From sequence record NC_052659.1: a DNA stretch of 64,000 bases. One strand, given 5' to 3'. The notes beneath the pieces are model-generated. The model did no database searches and was not told where the DNA came from. It saw nothing but the letters and a program-made list of their open reading frames with translations. The stretch is from Escherichia phage nieznany. A program made the translations under genes and the position numbers. Of this stretch, positions 17,585 to 62,706 are shown in pieces (position 1 is the stretch's first letter; every line of letters begins with the position of its first letter).

Positions 17585-18673
17585 ATGGCAGCAATTAATT
17601 TACACAATGAAGTTTACAAAACAGGAAAATATCCAGTATTTTTAGGGGAACAATTAGGGATCTTTGATTCTGTTAACGTAACTTATCCAGAAATGCACAA
17701 ACTCTACAAACTTCAAAAAGCACAAGATTGGGATGAGAATGAAGTCAATCTGGATCAGACACGTAAAGATTTCGTAGCTTGTTCTAAAAACAACTATGAT
17801 GTTATGATTAAAAACTTATCTTTCCAATGGGAAAATGATTCTCTTGCAAAATCAATCATCACTTTGTTCTCTCCATTCTTGAGTAACAATGAAGCCTGTG
17901 CTATGATGATGAAGCAGAGTGAAATGGAAGTTCTCCATGCGTTAACGTATTCTGAAATAATCCGTCAATGTACTCCAGATCCAATCGAAGTCATCAATCA
18001 GATTATGATTAATGATAAAATTTTCAATCGTATGGGTATCATTGCTGATATCATGGGTCAGTTGGAAGAAGCTGGTCATAAGTATGCTCTAGGATTGATT
18101 GAAGCTAACGATGAACTTCGACTGCTGATTCTTAAAGGGATGGTAGCCCTGATTGGGTTAGAAGGTATTCAGTTTATATCTTCCTTCTCTGCTACTTTTG
18201 CTATGGCAGAACAACAACTGTTTGTTGGAGCTTGTAAACTGATCCAGAAAATTATGCTAGATGAAATCTTGCATGTTAAGATGGATTATGCTGTAATTGA
18301 TGCATTGATGCATGACCCAATTTGGCGTAAAATTTACGAAGACAACATTGAAGAGTTGACTTTGATTCTTGACACTGTTGTTGAACAAGAGGAACAGTGG
18401 TGTGACTACCTGTTTAGTGAAGGGCGTTTTATTGTAGGTCTTAACGCCGAATTGTCTAAACAATGGGTTTATTTCAATGCTGCTCCTATTTATCGTCGAT
18501 TGAAAATGAAAGCCAAGTTTAAAGCACCTAAACATAGTCCTTTAGCTTGGATGGAAAAATGGTTGAATCCTGATTTGATTCAGTCAGCAGCCCAAGAGAT
18601 TCAGTTAACTAACTACAAATTAAATTCAGCTAACAAAGATCTCTCTGATGATGAGGAGCTTGACTTCGAATGA
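17585..18673 (+). CDS. nrdB: ribonucleoside-diphosphate reductase small subunit NrdB
   Basis: 362 aa, ferritin-like di-iron protein immediately downstream of nrdA. Confidence 0.85.
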   Translation: MAAINLHNEVYKTGKYPVFLGEQLGIFDSVNVTYPEMHKLYKLQKAQDWDENEVNLDQTRKDFVACSKNNYDVMIKNLSFQWENDSLAKSIITLFSPFLSNNEACAMMMKQSEMEVLHALTYSEIIRQCTPDPIEVINQIMINDKIFNRMGIIADIMGQLEEAGHKYALGLIEANDELRLLILKGMVALIGLEGIQFISSFSATFAMAEQQLFVGACKLIQKIMLDEILHVKMDYAVIDALMHDPIWRKIYEDNIEELTLILDTVVEQEEQWCDYLFSEGRFIVGLNAELSKQWVYFNAAPIYRRLKMKAKFKAPKHSPLAWMEKWLNPDLIQSAAQEIQLTNYKLNSANKDLSDDEELDFE

Positions 18674-18879
18674 TTTTGAAATGTGTTGGTATAATCGACA
18701 CATTCAAAGACGTTTTTGATAAAGGGGCTTCTTATGAAGCCTCTGAAATGAAGAATGGTTTTTGTGATGTATTCGGTAAACGCCTGAAGAAAAACGGCGA
18801 TCCTTGGCTAGGAGTTATGTCTTGTGGTCATATTATTGTAAATGGTGTTGCCAAGTTTGAAATAATTAAGGAGGAATAG
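18670..18879 (+). CDS. hypothetical protein
   Basis: 69 aa ORF, ATGA overlap with nrdB. Confidence 0.4.
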   Translation: MILKCVGIIDTFKDVFDKGASYEASEMKNGFCDVFGKRLKKNGDPWLGVMSCGHIIVNGVAKFEIIKEE

Positions 18880-19031
18880 TGGCTGAAAAACTTATTTTTT
18901 GTCCTGTGTGCGGTGGGACGGGACAGATGGAAGTGGAAATTATGGTAACATTTCCTTGCCTGAATTGTCATGGTGAGGGACGAGTAGTAGTCTTTGAAAA
19001 AGGAGGGTTGGAGGTAGAAGATGGAGAGTGA
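18879..19031 (+). CDS. small zinc-ribbon protein (50 aa, GTG start)
   Basis: AGGAGG then GTG; CPVCGG...CLNCHG. Confidence 0.4.
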   Translation: MAEKLIFCPVCGGTGQMEVEIMVTFPCLNCHGEGRVVVFEKGGLEVEDGE

Positions 19032-19185
19032 AAAAGAGTATGTCCGCATTCCACGAGAATTAACAGATCACATTGCAGAAGCAATAGCTTTCGAAGCTAG
19101 ATGTTGTGGAGGTATTGCTTACGATATTTATGAAGCAATTATTAAAGCTGCTCAAGAAGAGGAGGAGATGAATAATGGGTATTGA
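19021..19185 (+). CDS. small hypothetical protein (54 aa)
   Basis: Manual translation MESEKEYVRIP...; below ORF-track cutoff. Confidence 0.3.
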   Translation: MESEKEYVRIPRELTDHIAEAIAFEARCCGGIAYDIYEAIIKAAQEEEEMNNGY

Positions 19186-19501
19186 TATCGAATGGCGTAT
19201 GTTACAGGGTGCACCATATGATAAATGGAAAGAAATATTTGGAGACGACCCACAAGTTGAAGACCAGTTCGATGGGGACTTTAATTGGTTTCTCTGTGAA
19301 GGTTTGGGCTTGGAAAACATTTCCCCGTGGTACGATGCAGATCCTGAAGATTGTGTCTTCGGTGTCAAGCTGTGTAGCGGCTGTGGTGCTTGTGCCATAG
19401 ACCTCACAAGCTTAAATAAAAAAGCAAATGAGATCTATTTTGAACTACTTAATAAGTATAATATTGAAACTGAAACATTAGTGTCACAAAACGTCTGGTA
19501 A
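19175..19501 (+). CDS. hypothetical protein
   Basis: 108 aa ORF. Confidence 0.4.
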   Translation: MGIDIEWRMLQGAPYDKWKEIFGDDPQVEDQFDGDFNWFLCEGLGLENISPWYDADPEDCVFGVKLCSGCGACAIDLTSLNKKANEIYFELLNKYNIETETLVSQNVW

Positions 19502-19510
19502 GGAGAACTG

Positions 19511-20503
19511 ATGCGCTATCTGGTAACAGGTGGTCTTGGTTTTATTGGGAGCGCCGTGGTGCGCTCTCTTTGTCAAGATCCTAATAACGAAGTTTTTGTC
19601 GTTGATAAGATGGGCTATGCAGCAGATATTGAGAATGTAGGCGATATCACTCACGTTAAACTAAGCATGACAGATTTGGCAAACGAAACCCAGGTCAAAA
19701 GTTTAGTAGTAGAGTGCAATCCTGACTTCATCATTCACTTAGCGGCAGAAAGTCATGTGGATAATTCTATCAAGAATCCACGAGTTTTCATCGACTCCAA
19801 TATTATCGGTACATACAATTTATTGGAAGCTGCAAGGCTCCTCCCAAAAAATAAACTGAAGATGTTCGTACACGTCTCCACAGACGAAGTGTACGGCGAT
19901 ATGGCAGACTCTGGCGTTCCCTTTACCGAAGAGACAGCTTATGCCCCTTCAAGCCCGTACAGTGCGTCTAAGGCAGCATCTGACCATCTTGTGAAAGCTT
20001 GGCACCGCACCTACGATTTGCCTGTTGTGATAACCAACTGCTCCAATAACTTTGGGCCTTATCAACATCCAGAAAAGCTGATCCCAAAAATCATCACAAG
20101 TATCTTGACGAATAAAGAGATTCCGGTGTATGGTAAAGGCGACCAGGTGCGAGACTGGCTTTTTGTTGAGGATCATGCGCGAGCTATTCTTCAAGTGGCA
20201 ACAGGTGGAGAACCAGGTCAAACGTATAATGTTGGAACACGTAATCCCAAAACCAATATGGAGATCATCTATATGGTTTGTGACTATATGGATACTGTAC
20301 ATCCAGAAGCAGTAACCTACCCTTCTTCCAACTTGATAACTTTTGTTGAAGATCGTAAAGGACATGACTTGCGTTATGAAATCAATCCTTCTAAGATAGA
20401 GTCTGAACTGGGCTGGAGTGCAAACTCTACATTTGAACAAGATCTCTACTCAACGATTGAATGGTACTTAAACAACCCTCAATGGTGGAGTGAGAAAATT
20501 TAA
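19511..20503 (+). CDS. rmlB: dTDP-glucose 4,6-dehydratase (RmlB)
   Basis: N-terminal [11 protein letters not shown] Rossmann motif; SDR-type dehydratase; first gene of rml cluster. Confidence 0.85.
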
Positions 20504-20511
20504 GGAGGGTT

Positions 20512-21390
20512 ATGAAAGGTATTATTTTGGCGGGAGGAAGTGGAACCCGCCTTCATCCGGTAACACGCAGTGTGAGCAAGCAATTGCTCCCTGTGTATGA
20601 CAAACCCATGATCTACTACCCTTTATCGGTATTGATGTTGGCTGACATTAAGGATATTTTAATCATCACCACACCAGGTGATCAGGAAGACTTTGAGTAT
20701 CTTCTCGGAGATGGGTCTATGTTTGGGATAAAACTCACTTACGCAATCCAATCCGAGCCACGAGGTCTTGCGGAAGCTTTCATCATAGGTAAAGATTTTA
20801 TCGGAGAAGACTCTGTTGCTCTTATTTTAGGTGACAACCTATTCTTCGGACAAAGCTTTGGTAAACTACTGATTAACGCCAGTGAGATGGTAGATGTTTG
20901 GGGAGGAGCTTGTATTTTCGGGTATTTGGTGAAAGATCCTGAACGATTCGGTGTGGTTGAATTTGGGAGTAATCGTCAAGCTATTTCTATTGAAGAGAAA
21001 CCTGAAAATCCTAAATCAGATTATGCTGTCACAGGTTTGTATTTCTATGATAACTCTGTTATTCAACGTGCATTAGAAGTAACCCCTTCCGCGCGTGGAG
21101 AACTGGAGATCACTGATATCAATCGCAGCTACCTAGAAGACAGGAAGTTACAAGTGGAAGTTCTCGGACGAGGATTTACTTGGCTTGACACAGGAACACA
21201 CGCCAGTCTGATGGAAGCTGGTCAATTCGTGCAGACTATTGAGAACTGTCAAGGATTGAAGATTGCGTGCCTGGAAGAAATTGCTTTCAAAAAAGGGTGG
21301 ATTTCTTTAGAGACTTTGGTGTATCATGGAAACTCACTGAAGAAAACAGAGTACGGGCAATACCTACTCAAATTAGCGGAGAGAAAATGA
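20512..21390 (+). CDS. rmlA: glucose-1-phosphate thymidylyltransferase (RmlA)
   Basis: N-terminal [18 protein letters not shown], near-identical to the RmlA signature. Confidence 0.9.
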
Positions 21391-21953
21391 AAGTAGAAAA
21401 AACAAAAATTGAAGGTGCGGTAATTATCAAACCAGACGTTTATAAAGATGATCGTGGTTTCTTTCTAGAAACATATAATGAACAAAAATACGAAGATATT
21501 ATTGGTAGACAAACTTTCGTTCAAGATAACATGTCTAAATCAAACTTCGGTGTTTTGCGAGGAATGCACTTTCAAACAAATAACCCGCAAGGTAAGCTAG
21601 TTCGTTGTGTAAGTGGGGAAGTATTGGATTTCGCTGTAGATTTACGTAAAGATAGTCCAACTTACGGTGCTTGGGACGGTGTTGTTCTTCGTGCACGACA
21701 CCATACGCAGTTTTGGCTTCCGCCTGGTTTGGCTCATGGTTTTATAGTTTTGAGTATGGATGCTATCTTTGAATACAAATGCACAACTCCATACGACCCT
21801 TCTAGTGAACAAAGTTTACGTTGGGATGATCCTGATATAGGGATCGATTGGGGCTTCGATATGATTTTTGACGAAGGTTTTAAACCTATTCTATCAACAA
21901 AAGATGCAATGGCTAAATCTTTTCAACAGTTACGTAGCGAGGGTGTATGCTAA
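21387..21953 (+). CDS. rmlC: dTDP-4-dehydrorhamnose 3,5-epimerase (RmlC)
   Basis: ATGA overlap with rmlA; cupin-type epimerase motifs [14 protein letters not shown]. Confidence 0.8.
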
Positions 21954-22789
21954 CATATCTGGTATTGGGCGGTAATGGACAACTGGGACAAGCTTTACGT
22001 AAAGTGGCTCCTTCAAATGTATCTTTAATTTATCCTAAAGAACGTGTAGATATTACAAATTTTGAAGCTGTGCGAAACGCTATTATTGAAGATTATGTAG
22101 ATGGTGTTATTAATTGCGCCGCTTATACGGCTGTAGATAAAGCAGAACATGATTTTGCTACTGCTTTGGCTGTTAATGCGTATGGACCTGCAAATATTGC
22201 GGCAGTGTGCAGCAAACTTAAAATTGATTTTGTGCATATTTCTACAGACTATATTTTTAATTATTCTCATCCTATTTTTGAAGATACTACACCTAACCCA
22301 ATAAACAATTATGGGTATACGAAAGAACTTGGTGAAAAAATGGTGCGAGGAGTTAACCCAAATGCATATATTATTCGAACAGCCTCGGTATATAGCGAAT
22401 TTGGAAATAACTTTCTAAAAACCATGTTGTCTCGCTATAATGATGGACAACGTGATTTTATTATTGTTGCTGATCAGTTCTCTTGTCCAACATATGCTCC
22501 AGATTTAGCAGAAGCTATTTTTGAAGTATTAAAAACAGGTTGGTCAAGGTCTATTAAGACTTACCATTTTGCAGGAAGCCATCTTATTTCTTGGGCGGAG
22601 TTTGCGGAAAAGATCTTGACACAGATGCCAGAACCTGTTAAGATATCGGCGGTATCAGCTTCAACCTATAATGCTCCAGCAGCACGTCCGGTGAAGTCAC
22701 AACTAGTAACCAGTCACTATCTTACAAAATCAGATTTAAATAAAGGTATTGAACAGTCTTTAGCAGTATTACTTAATAAGGAGAGGTAA
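21947..22789 (+). CDS. rmlD: dTDP-4-dehydrorhamnose reductase (RmlD)
   Basis: N-terminal LVLGGNGQLG; completes the four-gene rml cluster. Confidence 0.8.
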   Translation: MLTYLVLGGNGQLGQALRKVAPSNVSLIYPKERVDITNFEAVRNAIIEDYVDGVINCAAYTAVDKAEHDFATALAVNAYGPANIAAVCSKLKIDFVHISTDYIFNYSHPIFEDTTPNPINNYGYTKELGEKMVRGVNPNAYIIRTASVYSEFGNNFLKTMLSRYNDGQRDFIIVADQFSCPTYAPDLAEAIFEVLKTGWSRSIKTYHFAGSHLISWAEFAEKILTQMPEPVKISAVSASTYNAPAARPVKSQLVTSHYLTKSDLNKGIEQSLAVLLNKER

Positions 22790-23211: not shown

Positions 23212-23712
23212 ATGGCTAAAGTAGTAGATGAGTTTGATATGCTACGAGTCGATGAAGGACTGAAGCTTACTGTTTATCAAGACCATCTTGGTTATTGGAC
23301 AGTCGGCATAGGACACCTTCTGACTAAAATAAAAGATAAAGCAAAGGCTATTCAAATCTTAGATAATCTTCTTGGTCGTAAGACTAATGGAGTTATCACA
23401 GAAAAAGAAGCCCGTCAAATCTTTGCTGATGATGTTGCAAAAGTGAAGAGAGACATAAAAAACAGTGCTATCTTATCACCAATCTATGATAAGGTTAGTG
23501 ATACTCGTAAATTGGGAATAATCAACATGGTTTTCCAGTTGGGGTTAAAAGGTGCTGAAGGGTTTCAAAATAGCTTGACTTTAATCAGCAATGCATATTA
23601 TACTCAAGCAGGTAAAAACATGCGTAAAAGCCGATGGTATAGCCAGACGCCAAACCGTGCTGAACGAGTAATTAAAGTTCTGACTTCTGGAACTTTAGAT
23701 GCTTACAACTAA
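23212..23712 (+). CDS. e: T4-type lysozyme (endolysin e)
   Basis: MLRVDEGLKLTVYQDHLGYWTVGIGHLLTK and SRWYSQTPNRAERVI closely match T4 lysozyme as recalled. Confidence 0.85.
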   Translation: MAKVVDEFDMLRVDEGLKLTVYQDHLGYWTVGIGHLLTKIKDKAKAIQILDNLLGRKTNGVITEKEARQIFADDVAKVKRDIKNSAILSPIYDKVSDTRKLGIINMVFQLGLKGAEGFQNSLTLISNAYYTQAGKNMRKSRWYSQTPNRAERVIKVLTSGTLDAYN

Positions 23713-23713
23713 T

Positions 23714-23731
23714 AAAGGGGCTTCGGCCCCT
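23714..23731 (+). terminator. UUCG-tetraloop hairpin AAGGGGCTTCGGCCCCTT
   Basis: Seen in sequence; no long T-tract. Confidence 0.4.
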
Positions 23732-23749
23732 TCTAAAAGGAGTGCTACT

Positions 23750-24508
23750 ATGGGAAATAAAACCGCAGCTAAAACACAACGGCAGAAACTGGCTAATTCA
23801 GCAAAGATTGAAAGCCGTTATGCAGCAAAAGCGGTAGGTAATGACGATTACCGTTTAGATGAATTTATGCCTGAAGGGGACCAAAATAAGATTGTTCAAA
23901 GCATGATTTGGAATGATCTGACTGTTGTAAATGCTCCGGCAGGGACTGGTAAAACCTCTGTTGCTTTATGGAAAGCTTTGCAGATGCTTCGTTCAGGAGA
24001 CTTCCGTAAACTACTTTTTATCAAGAACCCTACTGAAGTCGGAGATGACCAGATTGGTTTCTTGTCTGGAGATAAAACAGATAAACTAGCAGCACACTAT
24101 GAATCTACAAAACGTATTTTCCAGCAATTCATGACAGCCAACAAATTGGAAAACGACATTGGATCAGGTAAGATCGAATTGAATATTCCTAACTATTTGT
24201 TGGGGGCCACCCTGGATAATACAATCGTCATTATTGACGAAGCACAACTTATGTCAACAGAAACACTTAAACTTCTTATTGAACGTGCAGGTATTAATAC
24301 GCATGTTATTGTATTAGGCGATGTTCGCCAGACATATGCAATTAAAAAACGTAGCAATGGTCTGCATCAAATTTTGGAACTTTTATATCCAGAAAATGAA
24401 GAAGGTGTTCGTGAGCCAATTGTAGATTTTATTGGATACGTTGAACTGACAACGGACGATAATAAACGTGGACGTTTGTCTAAACTGATTACTGAAGTGT
24501 TTATTTAA
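23750..24508 (+). CDS. phoH: PhoH-like ATPase
   Basis: Walker A GTGKTSVAL, PhoH-like architecture; start placed at ATG 23750 after hairpin and AAGGAG RBS. Confidence 0.75.
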   Translation: MGNKTAAKTQRQKLANSAKIESRYAAKAVGNDDYRLDEFMPEGDQNKIVQSMIWNDLTVVNAPAGTGKTSVALWKALQMLRSGDFRKLLFIKNPTEVGDDQIGFLSGDKTDKLAAHYESTKRIFQQFMTANKLENDIGSGKIELNIPNYLLGATLDNTIVIIDEAQLMSTETLKLLIERAGINTHVIVLGDVRQTYAIKKRSNGLHQILELLYPENEEGVREPIVDFIGYVELTTDDNKRGRLSKLITEVFI

Positions 24509-24540
24509 TAACATGGCAGGGAAGCCATTTATAAGGAGGA

Positions 24541-25044
24541 TTGATGGGTGTAGCAACAATAGCTATCGGAAGAAGCGGTATAGATGAGTGCTATCAAACG
24601 GGACTCGTAAAACCTAACGAATTTCGTCAAATTTGTGTAAACCATATTGAAAAAGAGATTGCTCTTACTTTAGAGAATATGACCCTCCGAGATAAACTGG
24701 AAATGTTTAAATGTTGGTGTCTAGGAGAAGATTGGCTTTTAAACCATTTTCAAGAACTTTCTGATAGTAAAGAAAGCTTGTTTGATTGTATAATAGGAAT
24801 AGCTGGCTCCGATCCTAGCCTTCTGCACATAACAGAAGAAGAGGCGAAGTTACTGTTCTTAAGTAATTTGTTTAATAAGAAAGCACTGCTTGTTCGTGAT
24901 TGCAGTGATCTTCTTAATAACCCGCTCGCAACGTCTGATCAAATTTTTGTTGACAAAGAGACACTACGTGCGATAGAATACATCTGCAAATATGTGAATG
25001 GCGGGAAAGCGGTTCTTAAAACATTAACAGAGGAGGAAGAATAG
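24541..25044 (+). CDS. hypothetical protein
   Basis: 167 aa ORF directly upstream of, and overlapping, the HslV-like gene. Confidence 0.45.
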   Translation: MMGVATIAIGRSGIDECYQTGLVKPNEFRQICVNHIEKEIALTLENMTLRDKLEMFKCWCLGEDWLLNHFQELSDSKESLFDCIIGIAGSDPSLLHITEEEAKLLFLSNLFNKKALLVRDCSDLLNNPLATSDQIFVDKETLRAIEYICKYVNGGKAVLKTLTEEEE

Positions 25045-25736
25045 TGACGACAATTATTGCAACCAAAAATAAGATTTTGAGTGACGGTAAGGTAACTTTT
25101 GGTGGACGTGTAGATTCTATTAATTTCAAAAAGGTCCGAAAAATTGGAGATTACCTTGTGGGTGGTGCTGGTCGTCTGACCTCCGTGCTTTCTTTCTTTC
25201 AATGGTTTGAACAAAATCTACAGTGCGAAGCAGCACGTGATGCTGTCCCTGGTTTGATGATTCACTCTGATCCAGATAAAGAAGATGAAGAGTTTATTGC
25301 ACTTGTTGTTCATCCAGACGGACGTATTTTCCTGCACGAAGGTAACAACCCAACACGTGCATATCCGATTGATGAAGAATATTATGCGGTAGGAAGTGGG
25401 TCAGACTTTGCTTTAGCTGCTCTTGATGCAGGGGCAACACCAGAACAGGCTATGGAAGTAGCTAAAAAGCGAGATGCTTTTTCTGGTGGTGAAACATTTA
25501 TTGAAGAACAAGACGAGATTATTGAATTAACAGACGATGATTTAGAAAACTTCTCCAAAGAAGAATTGATCAATCTTTTGAAATTCGGTAATCCCTACGG
25601 TGAAGAAGAACCTCGTAACGTGGCAGGCAACGAGGCGGATACTGAAGAAAAATATGTTGCAGAAAACAACTTGACTTCTAAATCTGAAAATATTAATCTC
25701 GTAAATGTGGCGGATTTCGAAGGAACCGCTATTTAA
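25044..25736 (+). CDS. HslV / proteasome beta-subunit-like Ntn-hydrolase peptidase with acidic C-terminal extension
   Basis: GTG start; M-TTIIA N-terminus (catalytic Thr after Met removal), KKVRK, VGGAG and YAVGSGSDFALAA match HslV TTIV...KKVRR...AGGTADA...GSGG as recalled. Confidence 0.7.
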   Translation: MTTIIATKNKILSDGKVTFGGRVDSINFKKVRKIGDYLVGGAGRLTSVLSFFQWFEQNLQCEAARDAVPGLMIHSDPDKEDEEFIALVVHPDGRIFLHEGNNPTRAYPIDEEYYAVGSGSDFALAALDAGATPEQAMEVAKKRDAFSGGETFIEEQDEIIELTDDDLENFSKEELINLLKFGNPYGEEEPRNVAGNEADTEEKYVAENNLTSKSENINLVNVADFEGTAI

Positions 25737-25742
25737 CAAACT

Positions 25743-25756
25743 GCCCCTTCGGGGGC
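25743..25756 (+). terminator. hairpin GCCCCTTCGGGGGC
   Basis: Seen in sequence. Confidence 0.4.
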
Positions 25757-25781
25757 ATTTCTTAAACATAGGAGATTAATA

Positions 25782-26216
25782 ATGTTACAAGTTCCTGCTA
25801 AGTTTGTTGAAGGCGCTATCCACTCTTACCGTCAAACATGTAAGAGGGCAAGAAACTGTTTAGATGGTCTGGTGGCAAAAACCTATACTGTTGAAAAGAA
25901 AAAACGTTGGTTTGGCAAAGATGTTTACGAAGTTAATATTTTTGGTGAACATAAACTAAACCACGATACTCCTGAAAACATGTTAGAAATATTTCTAAGA
26001 GATGACAAAATATCTCCTATGGATTACCAACTTTTAAAATTTTATGATTCTTCTTTAGCTATTGATAAGTTTGTTGAAGATATTCTGTCTAGAAAAACAG
26101 ATAAAAACACTTATCCTCTAGAGGCTGATCAAATAGGATTATTAAACGAGATTTCATCCTTTAAAGAGTTGGATAATATTACAAAAGAGGAGATTTTAGA
26201 TGGCATTAGATTATGA
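25782..26216 (+). CDS. hypothetical protein
   Basis: 144 aa ORF. Confidence 0.45.
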   Translation: MLQVPAKFVEGAIHSYRQTCKRARNCLDGLVAKTYTVEKKKRWFGKDVYEVNIFGEHKLNHDTPENMLEIFLRDDKISPMDYQLLKFYDSSLAIDKFVEDILSRKTDKNTYPLEADQIGLLNEISSFKELDNITKEEILDGIRL

Positions 26217-26709
26217 TCGCCCAACGAGCGATTATTATCCGACACCGCAAAAAGCAATCAACAGTTTGTTTAGTGTTATAGATTTCAAAAATCTAAAGGA
26301 AGAAGGTTGGGTTTTTGCAGAACCTTGTAGAGGTGAAGCTGAAGCGATTTATCGCCATTTTCCTGAAGGTTCAGAATATTGTGAACTTGAAGAAGGTAAA
26401 GATTATTTTAGTCATGAATGGGAAAATCGTCCCGACATTATAATCACAAATCCTCCATTCAAGTTAGCAATGGAGTTCTTGGAAAAGAGCTTAAAAGAGG
26501 CGGATGTTTGTATTTATCTTCTTCGGTTGGGCTTCTTGGAGTCAAAGAAACGACGAGAGTTCCATCAAAAGAATCCACCAACAAACCTTATAGTCCTTTC
26601 AGAACGGCCTTCGTTTGTTGCAGGTGGAACAGATAAGACAGCATACGCTTGGTATGTATACGACCCAAAGAATCGTTTGGGCCTCTCTCAACCATTTTAT
26701 TTTGTTTAA
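26200..26709 (+). CDS. phage Dam-like N6-adenine DNA methyltransferase (small form)
   Basis: IITNPPF motif IV; size about 170 aa typical of small phage Dam family. Confidence 0.5.
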   Translation: MALDYDRPTSDYYPTPQKAINSLFSVIDFKNLKEEGWVFAEPCRGEAEAIYRHFPEGSEYCELEEGKDYFSHEWENRPDIIITNPPFKLAMEFLEKSLKEADVCIYLLRLGFLESKKRREFHQKNPPTNLIVLSERPSFVAGGTDKTAYAWYVYDPKNRLGLSQPFYFV

Positions 26710-59149: not shown

Positions 59150-59492
59150 AAACTGCGTCTGCGTCGATGAGTTTGTGTTTGTTGTTCCGCATGTAGTCTA
59201 AGATAAGTAGACGTTTATTGTATCTGGAGAGATTATGACCCTCTTTTCCGCCATAGTCAAAATATTTTGCAAGATCTTTACACTCAAACAAAATCAGTTC
59301 GGGAGTTTCTTCACACTGGTCTGTCTGGTACACTTGACGAATGATCATGTATACATCGTCGTCTTCCGCTAAATGCTCTACTGGTCCACATCCAGCAGGA
59401 ACAAATTCATAGTCCCATCTGATCAGATGTTTCTCTACTGCTTCAAAGAAATCCATCCTTTCATTGCGCATAATTTGAACGTCAACTAACAT
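59127..59492 (-). CDS. hypothetical protein
   Basis: 121 aa ORF. Confidence 0.4.
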   Translation of the reverse strand: MLVDVQIMRNERMDFFEAVEKHLIRWDYEFVPAGCGPVEHLAEDDDVYMIIRQVYQTDQCEETPELILFECKDLAKYFDYGGKEGHNLSRYNKRLLILDYMRNNKHKLIDADAVYGYWWMD

Positions 59493-60946
59493 GTTTCCTC
59501 CTCTCTCATTATTCCACCTGCTTGGTTGATAGCACTTAAGACGATAGCCAAATCCTCGCGCAGGAAGGTTTCACTATGACCATCTTTCATGTGCAAGCGT
59601 TCTACACAGCCAATAGACGGTAGAATCTGATCAGTCTTAGACTTTAGCTTACTCTCTAACGCCCTGCAAGCTTGGTAGGACGGCAGATCGAACAATGCTA
59701 TACGGCGCATAGAGTAATTGTTGTTTGCATTCTGCCCTTTGATCCTGATATCACTGTCCTTTGCAATCCCCAACTTGTAAGCTCCCGTGTCTTCTCCGTA
59801 CTCATCAAGAATAATATTGATGTAAAATTCTTGCATATTTCTGTTCTTACAGCCTGGACAACCTTTCCCATTGAGATAATCGGTAGGTGTGATCGTTTGC
59901 TCTCCATGCTCCCTACATAGATATTTAAACTTGCTGTTATTGCTTACCTTATCAATGAATCCTATAAATTGATCCCCTCGTTCCTGGCAAGCTTTGGTCA
60001 TACGGTAGGCCCATTGTTCAGGAGTGTAATGATAATATTTAGAACAACGGCAAGGAAGGCCACCCCTTTTCAAATGACTCATCTTCATCTCAAATTTATT
60101 ATCGCATAAGCCTTCTTTACAATAATCATCCTCTGCACATATAGGACATTCTACAATCCAGTAAACCTGACGACCTAATCTATCTACTCTATCGCTACGA
60201 TAATATTTACGCTCTACATTATCAGGACAAGCTTTTATAAAATCTTCAACATGTTGTTTATCCTCCATAGTATTCCTTTGTTTCGTCATTTCTCTTTGAC
60301 AACTGTAGCATCCAGTCCCTTGTTTAGCACTGTTTACAGTGGTAGTGCACCATTGACCATGAACCTTACACTCACAAATCAACTTAGTGCGGGAACCGTT
60401 CCACGGTTCCACATAGCCTCTAACAATCCAGGGTTTTTCTTTATAAGCTTCTTCTACTTCTTCTTTATGTTTCTCCCATGCAATCGATGTTCTTTCTCTG
60501 TTTGCTTCTCCCATACACTTCCTGCATCCACTCCCGTTTTTCGCAGAAGATATAGAAGTAGACCTCCACTCCCCATGTAAAGCACAACAACAAACCAGTT
60601 TAGTATTCCATCCTTTCCATTCTCCGTGCCATCCTGTAACAGTCCAAAACTTACCTGCCTGATTGTAAGTGGTTTGCACTTCTTCTTTATATTGCTCCCA
60701 GGTTTTTGATTTGTTTATAGATACTGCTTTACTTATAATCTCCCTACCGCATTCTGGACAACCCCTCCCTAGTTTAGCGGTATTTATGCTTGTTGTTTTC
60801 CATTCTCCATGCAGAGCACAGATGCATCTAAGTTTAGTTTTATTGCCGTTCCACGGCTCAATATAATCTACAACAGTCCAAGACTTACCTTGATAAGCTT
60901 GTTTTATATCTGTTTTATATTGTTCCCAAGTGACTATTTTTGGCAC
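59486..60946 (-). CDS. zinc-finger repeat protein (three or four about 65-aa Cys/His modules) with possible C-terminal GIY-YIG-like nuclease domain
   Basis: Repeated W..Y.EPWNG..TKL.C.C..HGEW.T....AK.G.GC..C modules; C-terminal FYINIIL-x9-YKLGIA-x6-R resembles GIY-(10)-YIG-R. Confidence 0.35.
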   Translation of the reverse strand: MPKIVTWEQYKTDIKQAYQGKSWTVVDYIEPWNGNKTKLRCICALHGEWKTTSINTAKLGRGCPECGREIISKAVSINKSKTWEQYKEEVQTTYNQAGKFWTVTGWHGEWKGWNTKLVCCCALHGEWRSTSISSAKNGSGCRKCMGEANRERTSIAWEKHKEEVEEAYKEKPWIVRGYVEPWNGSRTKLICECKVHGQWCTTTVNSAKQGTGCYSCQREMTKQRNTMEDKQHVEDFIKACPDNVERKYYRSDRVDRLGRQVYWIVECPICAEDDYCKEGLCDNKFEMKMSHLKRGGLPCRCSKYYHYTPEQWAYRMTKACQERGDQFIGFIDKVSNNSKFKYLCREHGEQTITPTDYLNGKGCPGCKNRNMQEFYINIILDEYGEDTGAYKLGIAKDSDIRIKGQNANNNYSMRRIALFDLPSYQACRALESKLKSKTDQILPSIGCVERLHMKDGHSETFLREDLAIVLSAINQAGGIMREEETC

Positions 60947-61034
60947 ACCTCCCCCTTTAGCTATTAGTGCGAGCCTACAACAAAAGAATAACTAAAATCC
61001 CTCCATAACAAATGCCCCTTGCGGGGCATCTTTA

Positions 61035-62174
61035 TTAGAACACGCTACCAAGTGTAGTGGAACGTTGTGTTACAGGCTCCAGCACCACTCGCAAAGTGTT
61101 TCCTGGTGTAGTGCTCATAACCAGAATCTTACCACCTTCAATCAGATCACAAGTTAGACCATCAGCCGTTGCACATAGATCAATATGTGGATCACCATCT
61201 TCATCCAGGATAACATAACTGTTGGTTTCCATTGCTTCCACTTCATCATCTTTCAAACTTTGTAGATAGATGTTCAGGGAACAAGCACCCGACAAAAACT
61301 TAGTAGGGGTGAAGTCGTGCCAGTTATTGATCCAATTCACCTTCAAGGTTTTGCCATTAGCTACGATAGAAGCCACATTCCATTTAGCATCGTTCCCTAA
61401 AGAAATACCCATCATTTCAAGACATTCTTTAAAAGTCATTTTTGGATAGAAATTCAATTCTTCTACAATGCCTTGAATAACATCGAAAGACAACTCTGTG
61501 CTAACATCCCATAAACGTTGGAAGTTATCTACGTGCTTTTTATTTACCAAGTTCTTATCCAAGTAATCTAACATAGTTTCACTAGACAGTTTATCGTAAT
61601 TGAAACTGTAGTAGATACGACTAGGACGGTTTACAAAATATTCCGAGATATAACCACTATTTTTAGTGAGGATGTAAAGTTTATTCCCACTTCCTGTTCC
61701 ATCCAACAAGGTCAACAGTGCTTCCTGATCTTCTTTCTTAGCGTACACTTTATCAAATTCGTCAAATAAAACAACAGCACGATCTGTAATTTTACTCATA
61801 AATTCTAAGAAGCCAGCATCTGTGTAAGGCTGTGTAACCAAAATGGTTGGAATACCTAAACCTTCTGTGGACATTAGAGACATGCTAATCAGTTTAGCTA
61901 ACATCGTCTTACCACTGCCTTTTGTCCCTGTCAGTAACACCCCAGTATTTTTACCTTCTTTACTACGACGAGCAAATGTTTTAATAACATGTGCGGCGCG
62001 ATTTTTAGTTTCCCCATAAAGAGTGTTCGGAAGAGAGAAACTTTCACCACGCACTAAAGAGTAGTTACCGTGCGGATCGCAGTTGACAACCCAAACTCCA
62101 GCAGGAAGTTTATTAGCTTCAACGCCATATTCCTTATTTACAACAGCTACATCTCCAAAAATAGTGTATTTCAT
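61035..62174 (-). CDS. AAA-family ATPase
   Basis: Walker A GTKGSGKT, Walker B VVLFDEFDK, sensor-1-like ILTKN and RPSRI. Confidence 0.6.
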   Translation of the reverse strand: MKYTIFGDVAVVNKEYGVEANKLPAGVWVVNCDPHGNYSLVRGESFSLPNTLYGETKNRAAHVIKTFARRSKEGKNTGVLLTGTKGSGKTMLAKLISMSLMSTEGLGIPTILVTQPYTDAGFLEFMSKITDRAVVLFDEFDKVYAKKEDQEALLTLLDGTGSGNKLYILTKNSGYISEYFVNRPSRIYYSFNYDKLSSETMLDYLDKNLVNKKHVDNFQRLWDVSTELSFDVIQGIVEELNFYPKMTFKECLEMMGISLGNDAKWNVASIVANGKTLKVNWINNWHDFTPTKFLSGACSLNIYLQSLKDDEVEAMETNSYVILDEDGDPHIDLCATADGLTCDLIEGGKILVMSTTPGNTLRVVLEPVTQRSTTLGSVF

Positions 62175-62530
62175 TAGAACGTTTCTCCTTTTAAAATAAT
62201 TACTGTAAACTTTGCAGTTTTTTCACTCTTAATATTCTTGACTAATAAGTATTCTCCTCCAGGGGCATCTTTGTATTGTTTAATAGCTACTATTTCATTT
62301 TTGCAAGTAGCTATAATCGAATAAAAAGGACGTTCCGTGTTATCTTCTTTTCCCGTATATGCCTCAACATCTTTACACTCTTCTAGAACACCATTCCCAG
62401 GTGTATAGTAAAACTTGTTGCCTGTGATCACAACATCTTTACCAATATCTGTTTTAACTGCTACAAATTTTTGAGCGTAAGTGGTGAAGCTTACGGTAGC
62501 CAGCAATGTGGCTAAGATTAGTTTTTTCAT
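62174..62530 (-). CDS. secreted protein (signal peptide)
   Basis: GGAGGGAAG then ATG 62530; MKKLILATLLATVSFTTYA signal. Confidence 0.45.
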   Translation of the reverse strand: MKKLILATLLATVSFTTYAQKFVAVKTDIGKDVVITGNKFYYTPGNGVLEECKDVEAYTGKEDNTERPFYSIIATCKNEIVAIKQYKDAPGGEYLLVKNIKSEKTAKFTVIILKGETF

Positions 62531-62541
62531 AAACTTCCCTC

Positions 62542-62706
62542 CTATTCCCACAACATACAAATCGCAGCGACAAACATATTAGCAATAGCCGCACCAAGAA
62601 CTATAAACATCGCCAGTTCAGAACAATATTCACCAACCAAAGGGGATACTATTGCACAGAGTAACCCCAATGTCAAACACAAGTTGATGATGAAGTTTAA
62701 AATCAT
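62542..62706 (-). CDS. small membrane protein (54 aa)
   Basis: AAGGAGAGAAT then ATG; hydrophobic manual translation MILNFIINLCLTLGLLCA... Confidence 0.3.
   Translation of the reverse strand: MILNFIINLCLTLGLLCAIVSPLVGEYCSELAMFIVLGAAIANMFVAAICMLWE

Follow-up and report, generated by a model that had tools for sequence, protein, structure and literature searches.

A PPH/RPC-type proteasome homologue in Escherichia phage nieznany, predicted to lack helix H2 and probably working without a dedicated unfoldase

What does a peptidase of the proteasome fold do in a coliphage, and does it need an ATPase to do it? The question is raised by a gene with a GTG start at 25044..25736, on the plus strand of a 64,000-nucleotide stretch of Escherichia phage nieznany (NC_052659.1; the whole stretch is referred to here as the window), whose predicted product is a 230-amino-acid Thr1 peptidase with the proteasome/HslV fold. 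The role of phage proteasome homologues during infection is a genuine question, and a copy in E. coli phages that are easy to grow (phAPEC8, phi92, and relatives in the BASEL collection), together with a well-understood host HslUV, offers a convenient experimental model. We consider it fairly probable that the protein is a compact N-terminal-nucleophile (Ntn) hydrolase of the PPH/RPC type without helix H2, encoded by an accessory gene of Stephanstirmvirinae coliphages and probably working without a dedicated unfoldase. What is added here is evidence against a partnership with HslU, the lack of a conserved partner gene, the anatomy of a C-terminal extension, and a natural deletion which indicates that the gene is dispensable.

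With 99.9% identity to Escherichia phage tuntematon and more than 99% to about 50 further phAPEC8-like phages, the window region belongs to the genus Phapecoctavirus in the subfamily Stephanstirmvirinae, and not to the T4-like phages with which the original prediction had grouped it. That prediction also named no characterized protein of this kind in T4-like phages, but the gene is annotated in many public records, and the phage proteasome homologues PPH, RPC, and AAH were described in 2021 (Fuchs, Alva, Lupas; Bioinformatics 37:4694; PMC8665760). The gene had thus been annotated and its family described before, and the finding is not new. RefSeq names the window gene "peptidase HslV family" (JR325_gp231), and other records use "ATP-dependent protease subunit," "HslV family peptidase," "putative proteasome component," or, in many cases, just "hypothetical protein." Peptidases with this fold are widespread in phages: they were found in 213 phage records (with Escherichia, Caulobacter, Vibrio, Aeromonas, Klebsiella, and Rhizobium phages represented), among viral structure models (46 of these), and on viral contigs that fall into at least 29 lineages. 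The models in BFVD include proteasome-fold proteins of the jumbo phages Erwinia vB_EamM_Special G and RisingSun, Pseudomonas Noxifer and Psa21, and Serratia Moabite, and one from a Gordonia phage.

Nine nucleotides 5' of the GTG lies a Shine-Dalgarno sequence, GAGGAGG (25028..25034, plus strand), which falls within the end of the upstream open reading frame (ORF), and relatives carry GGAG-type sites at an equal distance from the peptidase start. A single base is common to the GTG and the TAG that closes the upstream ORF. The start at 25044 is supported because M-T-T-I is invariant across 42 homologues and because relatives have an ATG exactly where the window has GTG. In some records, such as MH051333.1 / NC_052654.1 (protein P0024), the gene is annotated from the internal Met72 as a protein of 159 amino acids; the GTG start was missed, and the catalytic Thr1 would therefore be lost. 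Read from GTG 25044, the protein begins with M-TTIIA and contains KKVRK, VGGAG, and YAVGSGSDFALAA, all as first described.

Sequence and structure searches agree on the fold, with matches well beyond those expected by chance. The peptidase scores 25.6 bits against Pfam PF00227 (Proteasome), which passes the gathering threshold of 22.4 and bears out the proteasome/HslV assignment made in the original prediction, and it matches PHROG 1040, "peptidase HslV family," over its full length (E 2.7e-63). The best solved relative in a single-sequence search of the PDB was HslV of T. maritima (1m4y; E 4.9e-9). A profile built from the 42 homologues matched HslV at E 1.9e-15 and proteasome beta5 at E 2.4e-11, and the family is therefore roughly equidistant from HslV and the 20S beta subunits. 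An AlphaFold model built on the alignment of these homologues (mean pLDDT 83.8, above 90 over most of the core) has the proteasome beta-sandwich with H1 (residues 45-67), H3 (120-128), H4 (133-143), and a last strand at 151-155. Foldseek matched the model to HslV, BPH, and archaeal and eukaryotic 20S beta subunits at E ~1e-10, with target-normalized TM scores of 0.65-0.69 to HslV and archaeal beta and a superimposable alpha-beta-beta-alpha sandwich; no solved structure of a phage homologue was among the matches.

Residues M1, T2, T3, I4, D14, K30, and G117-S118-G119 are invariant across the 42 homologues, while D144, S147, G148, and G149, and likewise the GGAG, GSG, and RDAFSGG segments, are invariant or nearly so. 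T2, D14, and K30 (numbered from the Met) correspond to HslV T1, D17, and K33; their codons lie at 25047-25049, 25083-25085, and 25131-25133 on the plus strand. When the comparison was widened to 80 viral-contig homologues, which fall into 29 lineages, the Asp was conserved in 28 lineages, the Lys likewise in 28, and G117 in all 29. By sequence and structure searches alike, the ORF is predicted to encode an Ntn peptidase of the proteasome-beta/HslV fold, with a putative Thr1 nucleophile directly after the Met and the full set of active-site residues intact.

The model departs from HslV after helix H1. An acidic loop (25245..25295, plus strand; residues 68-84, VPGLMIHSDPDKEDEEF) replaces helix H2 and the pore segment of HslV: no helix is present between H1 and a strand at 84-89, and residues 68-83 are modelled as loop. 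Within the loop segment SDPDKEDEEF, residues D81, E82, and F84 hardly vary among close relatives, and the loop carries a net charge of -5. The NCBIfam equivalogs for HslV fail on this protein, NF003964 giving 32.2 bits against a cut-off of 137 and TIGR03692 giving 31.4 against 157.75. With these scores below the cut-offs and H2 missing from the model, the peptidase is judged not to be an HslV orthologue. PPH are described as proteins of ~140 amino acids from phages and prophages and RPC as relatives of PPH with a C-terminal extension, and both lack H2 (PMC8665760). We file the window protein as a putative phage proteasome homologue of the PPH or RPC type, because H2 is absent from the model and because homologues of 139-146 amino acids, which fit the description of PPH, are its significant relatives.

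With the PPH and RPC homologues as a group the window protein shares a compact core that is phage encoded and has no propeptide, Thr1 right after Met, the Asp/Lys triad, and the missing H2. It differs from PPH, which at ~140 amino acids have no extra domains, in that its 230 amino acids divide into a core of ~157 and an extension of ~73. RPC are described as having a PPH-like core without H2 and a C-terminal extension without known fold, as the window protein has; Table 1 of PMC8665760 gives RPC for proteobacterial genomes and does not list phages, and the window copy is from a phage. HslV (ClpQ) adopts the same fold, is of comparable size, and has in common with the window protein the N-terminal Thr nucleophile, Asp17, Lys33, and the GxxGG and GSG segments, but identity to E. 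coli HslV is ~26%, and the window peptidase has no adjacent hslU, no H2, Ser at the position of Lys28, and RDAFSGG where E. coli HslV has IAGDICIY. It also adds the acidic C-terminal extension, which E. coli HslV, at 176 amino acids, does not have since it ends where the core ends; the extension was therefore correctly noted at the outset as absent from HslV, but its length was put at roughly 60 residues and is about 70. The 20S beta subunits (beta5 type) share the fold and catalytic residues, and phage residues 113-166 locally match beta5 125-191, the region of Ser129, Asp166, and Ser169; the phage protein differs in being much shorter and in lacking a propeptide, an alpha-subunit partner, H2, and the C-terminal S12/H5. 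BPH of Thiobacillus denitrificans (5ovs, 5ovt), among the top Foldseek matches, is likewise stand-alone with no known unfoldase and has an acidic loop at the pore region. Sequence similarity to BPH is marginal, however (phmmer E about 1), and BPH keeps H2 and forms heptameric double rings.

A family about equally far from HslV and 20S beta might not be a protease, and could instead comprise Ntn transpeptidases or ligases, or small-molecule amidohydrolases, as with the divergent homologue connectase. Divergent homologues can differ in both chemistry and quaternary structure (PMC8665760), and the loss of H2 together with the extension could preclude a closed chamber. Against this, Thr1, the Asp, the Lys, the GSG serine, and RD..SGG are all conserved, and the insertion over the active site that defines connectase is absent from the model. 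We regard a chemistry other than proteolysis as very unlikely.

If the protein is a peptidase, the E. coli host could supply its ATPase. The original prediction proposed that the phage recruits host HslU (ClpY), forming a hybrid ATP-dependent protease that redirects host proteolysis, and several observations favor this: E. coli carries hslVU, HslV is the best-scoring solved relative, no ATPase partner was found in the phage, and the equivalents of the HslU-facing residues Arg35, Phe57, and Glu61 of HslV are kept. However, the phage peptidase has Ser aligned with HslV Lys28, the residue that in HslUV structure papers reportedly binds the C-terminal carboxylate of HslU. The pocket of HslV for the HslU C-tail is formed by Phe54, Phe57, Gln114, Ala79, and Lys80 (PMC6429459), of which Ala79 and Lys80 fall within H2, the helix absent from the phage model. 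The equivalog scores of 31-32 bits, against cut-offs of 137 and 158, also stand against this reading, as does the occurrence of PPH in Actinobacteria, for which HslV is not listed (PMC8665760 Table 1). Canonical docking on HslU looks unlikely from the alignment and the model, and recruitment of host HslU as a whole is, in our estimate, distinctly unlikely. A related candidate, that the C-terminus of the phage protein mimics the activating tail of HslU, was rejected: E. coli HslU ends in ...DLSRFIL and the phage protein in ...DFEGTAI, and the end residues differ among all close homologues.

As originally stated, there is no HslU-like gene adjacent to the peptidase, and tblastn at E<=1 found none in the entire window or in 83 related loci, each including ~6 kb of flanking sequence if the contig extended that far; the sole match at this threshold was spurious (19 residues). 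All ORFs of the related loci were also clustered and their recurrence next to the peptidase was counted across the 29 lineages. No family was a neighbor in more than 3 of the 29, and no ATPase was among the conserved neighbors. PhoH, glutaredoxin, and lysozyme recurred most, in lineages of Stephanstirmvirinae, Aeromonas, and Vibrio myoviruses.

The window does contain an AAA-family ATPase gene at 61035..62174 on the minus strand (Pfam AAA, 29.9 bits; PHROG 2376), which had been correctly placed 35 kb from the peptidase and named for co-folding with it. It is a classical AAA-family protein and weakly resembles ATPases of the Cdc48/Rix7 type, whose clade acts together with proteasomes in archaea, and Stephanstirmvirinae carry both genes. 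Beyond the distance and the opposite strand, the distributions of the two genes argue against the pairing. Relatives of the ATPase in PHROG 2376 come mainly from phages of Enterococcus, Bacillus, Staphylococcus, Lactobacillus, and Lactococcus, host groups that do not figure among the peptidase matches; the ten organism names listed most often for the ATPase include none of the Caulobacter, Vibrio, and Rhizobium phages that carry the peptidase; and the Aeromonas phages listed as matches for the ATPase differ from those listed for the peptidase. The two genes are not co-distributed among phages, and we rejected the ATPase as a partner on account of this mismatch; that the peptidase works with it is extremely unlikely. 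The genes flanking the ATPase within 59486..62560 (minus strand) are one for a 486-amino-acid protein (PHROG "endonuclease"; five CapR-homology-domain stretches) and a 128-amino-acid ORF, with no assigned function, whose stop overlaps the ATPase start.

The nearest candidate for a partner is the product of the upstream ORF, which was first given as 167 amino acids at 24541..25044 and proposed as half of a two-component unit. We moved its start from TTG 24541 to ATG 24544, so that the gene (24544..25044, plus strand; PHROG 14834) encodes 166 amino acids, and the model of the protein is an all-helical bundle at pLDDT 91. In all relatives of the lineage, down to ~47% peptidase identity, the stop codon of this ORF touches or overlaps the start codon of the peptidase, and translational coupling of the two genes in the Stephanstirmvirinae lineage is real by the sequences. 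The protein could be an adaptor, gate, inhibitor, or assembly factor dedicated to the peptidase. Besides the tight junction and the confidently predicted fold, the co-occurrence of the genes in about 130 phage records and a deletion in phage VEcB that hits both together (see below) are consistent with such a role. The upstream family is nevertheless confined to 1 of the 29 PPH lineages, with 132 phage records in 41 protein clusters that are all at least 46% identical, and synteny inside a single subfamily of phages is to be expected even of functionally unlinked genes. Even profile comparison shows no similarity between it and the ORFs that precede the peptidase in phiCbK and in the Aeromonas and Vibrio phages whose homologues bear an extension. 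The structure search gave no informative match for the upstream protein, and searches of Pfam, NCBIfam, PHROG, and PADLOC gave no functional family annotation. A physical partnership is possible, with the synteny that suggests it coming from one subfamily, and we view a dedicated two-component unit as unlikely and as unsupported by these distributions.

The C-terminal extension of the window protein covers residues 158-230 (73 amino acids), with 19 Asp/Glu and 5 Lys/Arg, and has two parts. The first is a helical hairpin at residues 164-181 (25533..25586, plus strand), with the motif LT..D....F-S-K-E-E-L-I..L, which is conserved to ~43% identity; its helices at 164-169 and 172-181 have pLDDT ~85-88 in the AlphaFold model. 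The second is a variable acidic tail, predicted to be disordered, at residues 183-230 (25590..25733, plus strand; 11 Asp/Glu versus 3 Lys/Arg), in which residues 193-219 have pLDDT below 50 and both sequence and length vary among close homologues. An extension of at least 29 residues occurs in only ~5 of the 29 lineages, and most lineages are bare, with proteins of 135-150 amino acids. A Pfam scan of four extensions at E<=10 returned noise only, and we dropped the idea that the hairpin is a known domain, of the SAP/HeH type or otherwise; searching PDB sequences with the C-terminal half gave no match. Longer relatives have further, unrelated C-terminal domains appended, some of them Cys-rich. 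The metagenomic homologues P0061, P0062, and P0068 (280-379 amino acids, 50-59% identity) have an extra C-terminal region beyond the acidic linker, with CxxC-type Cys pairs and a conserved end, ...KWRLHNA.

Whether the phage needs the peptidase at all is addressed by a natural deletion. In Escherichia phage VEcB (NC_052663.1; locus L086, 2165-2968), a single ORF joins pieces of PhoH and of the peptidase in frame: PhoH residues 18-132 (79% identity to the window PhoH) are followed by the peptidase from residue 63 onward (74%). The junction is a shared Ala-Ala microhomology, and the fused region corresponds to window positions 23750..25736. Lost are half of PhoH, the entire upstream ORF, and the part of the peptidase with Thr1, the Asp, and the Lys; in a second record from that species the peptidase gene is intact. 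Because VEcB is an isolated lytic phage with this deletion, the PhoH-peptidase block is, as judged from this one record, dispensable for laboratory propagation. The fusion protein is still annotated as "peptidase HslV family."

Taken with the preceding results, this leads to the following proposal for how the window peptidase works. Translation from GTG 25044 is coupled to termination of the upstream ORF, as the overlapping codons show, and host methionine aminopeptidase would then remove the Met and expose Thr1, as expected from the small-second-residue rule and the invariant M-T-T. Catalysis would use Thr1 as the nucleophile with the Asp17 and Lys33 equivalents, the GGAG oxyanion segment, the GSG serine, and RDAFSGG, all of which are conserved. 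Homology makes it probable that the subunits form homo-oligomeric rings. Most likely, peptides, unfolded chains, or a single specific target are processed without the help of a dedicated unfoldase, because no ATPase or conserved neighbor travels with the family and because the docking elements for HslU are missing. The helical hairpin and acidic tail would be a lineage-specific add-on outside the core which probably mediates an interaction or regulates access.

Several points weigh against this proposal. HslV is nearly inactive without HslU, and an autonomous enzyme would need another activation state. The missing nearby ATPase is also compatible with use of a host ATPase, and the retained Arg35, Phe57, and Glu61 equivalents mentioned above point the same way. 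The VEcB deletion is a single record and speaks to dispensability under laboratory conditions only. Finally, the literature on phage HslV/proteasome homologues consists of the 2021 survey and genome reports, with no experimental work found.

A more specific form of the proposal is that, in large myoviruses of gammaproteobacteria (Stephanstirmvirinae, Aeromonas Plateaulakevirus, and a Vibrio phage group), the PPH with an extension are self-sufficient, ATPase-independent mini-proteasomes, in which the hairpin and tail would recruit a specific host protein and the upstream protein would serve as an adaptor or inhibitor in the coliphages. If true, this would have, for example, a defense or stress regulator of the host cleaved during infection. 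We offer this only as a speculative suggestion, and think it rather improbable in its full form.

The neighbors of the peptidase gene include PhoH, lysozyme, glutaredoxin, and methyltransferase genes, which fits an accessory gene. The PhoH-like ATPase gene (23750..24508, plus strand) is a recurrent neighbor of extension-bearing peptidases in the same gene block, and the order lysozyme, glutaredoxin, PhoH, and then the proteasome homologue (23212..24508 in the window for the first three) is also seen in Aeromonas Plateaulakevirus and in a Vibrio phage (L003, L005). The lineages that share this order are those with long peptidase extensions. The shared order is probably that of an old common gene block. 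Just 5' of glutaredoxin, at ~18500..22789 (plus strand), lie four genes of the dTDP-rhamnose pathway (by the tuntematon annotation): glucose-1-phosphate thymidylyltransferase, dTDP-glucose 4,6-dehydratase, 3,5-epimerase, and reductase. PADLOC gave no defense-system match for the peptidase or its two neighbors.

Six nucleotides past the peptidase stop is a hairpin resembling an intrinsic terminator (25742..25764, plus strand; UGCCCC-UUCG-GGGGCA followed by UUUCUU), with a predicted energy of -14.8 kcal/mol (z -3.2), and relatives keep it through compensatory changes. Because this conserved terminator-like hairpin lies 3' of the stop, the peptidase is probably the last gene of a transcription unit that holds PhoH and the upstream ORF. 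A sigma-70 promoter of its own at 24950..24979, matching 11 of 12 consensus positions, was considered and set aside: its hexamers fall inside protein-coding sequence (VDKET / IEY), and relatives do not conserve them. The promoter scan overall was not above shuffled expectation, and the site is treated as unproven. Repeats within 24400-26300 are short two-copy matches without evident meaning. On the far side of the terminator hairpin, a 144-amino-acid ORF (25782..26216, plus strand; PHROG 15078) overlaps by 17 nt with the start of the small DNA methyltransferase gene (26200..26709, plus strand; PHROG 799).

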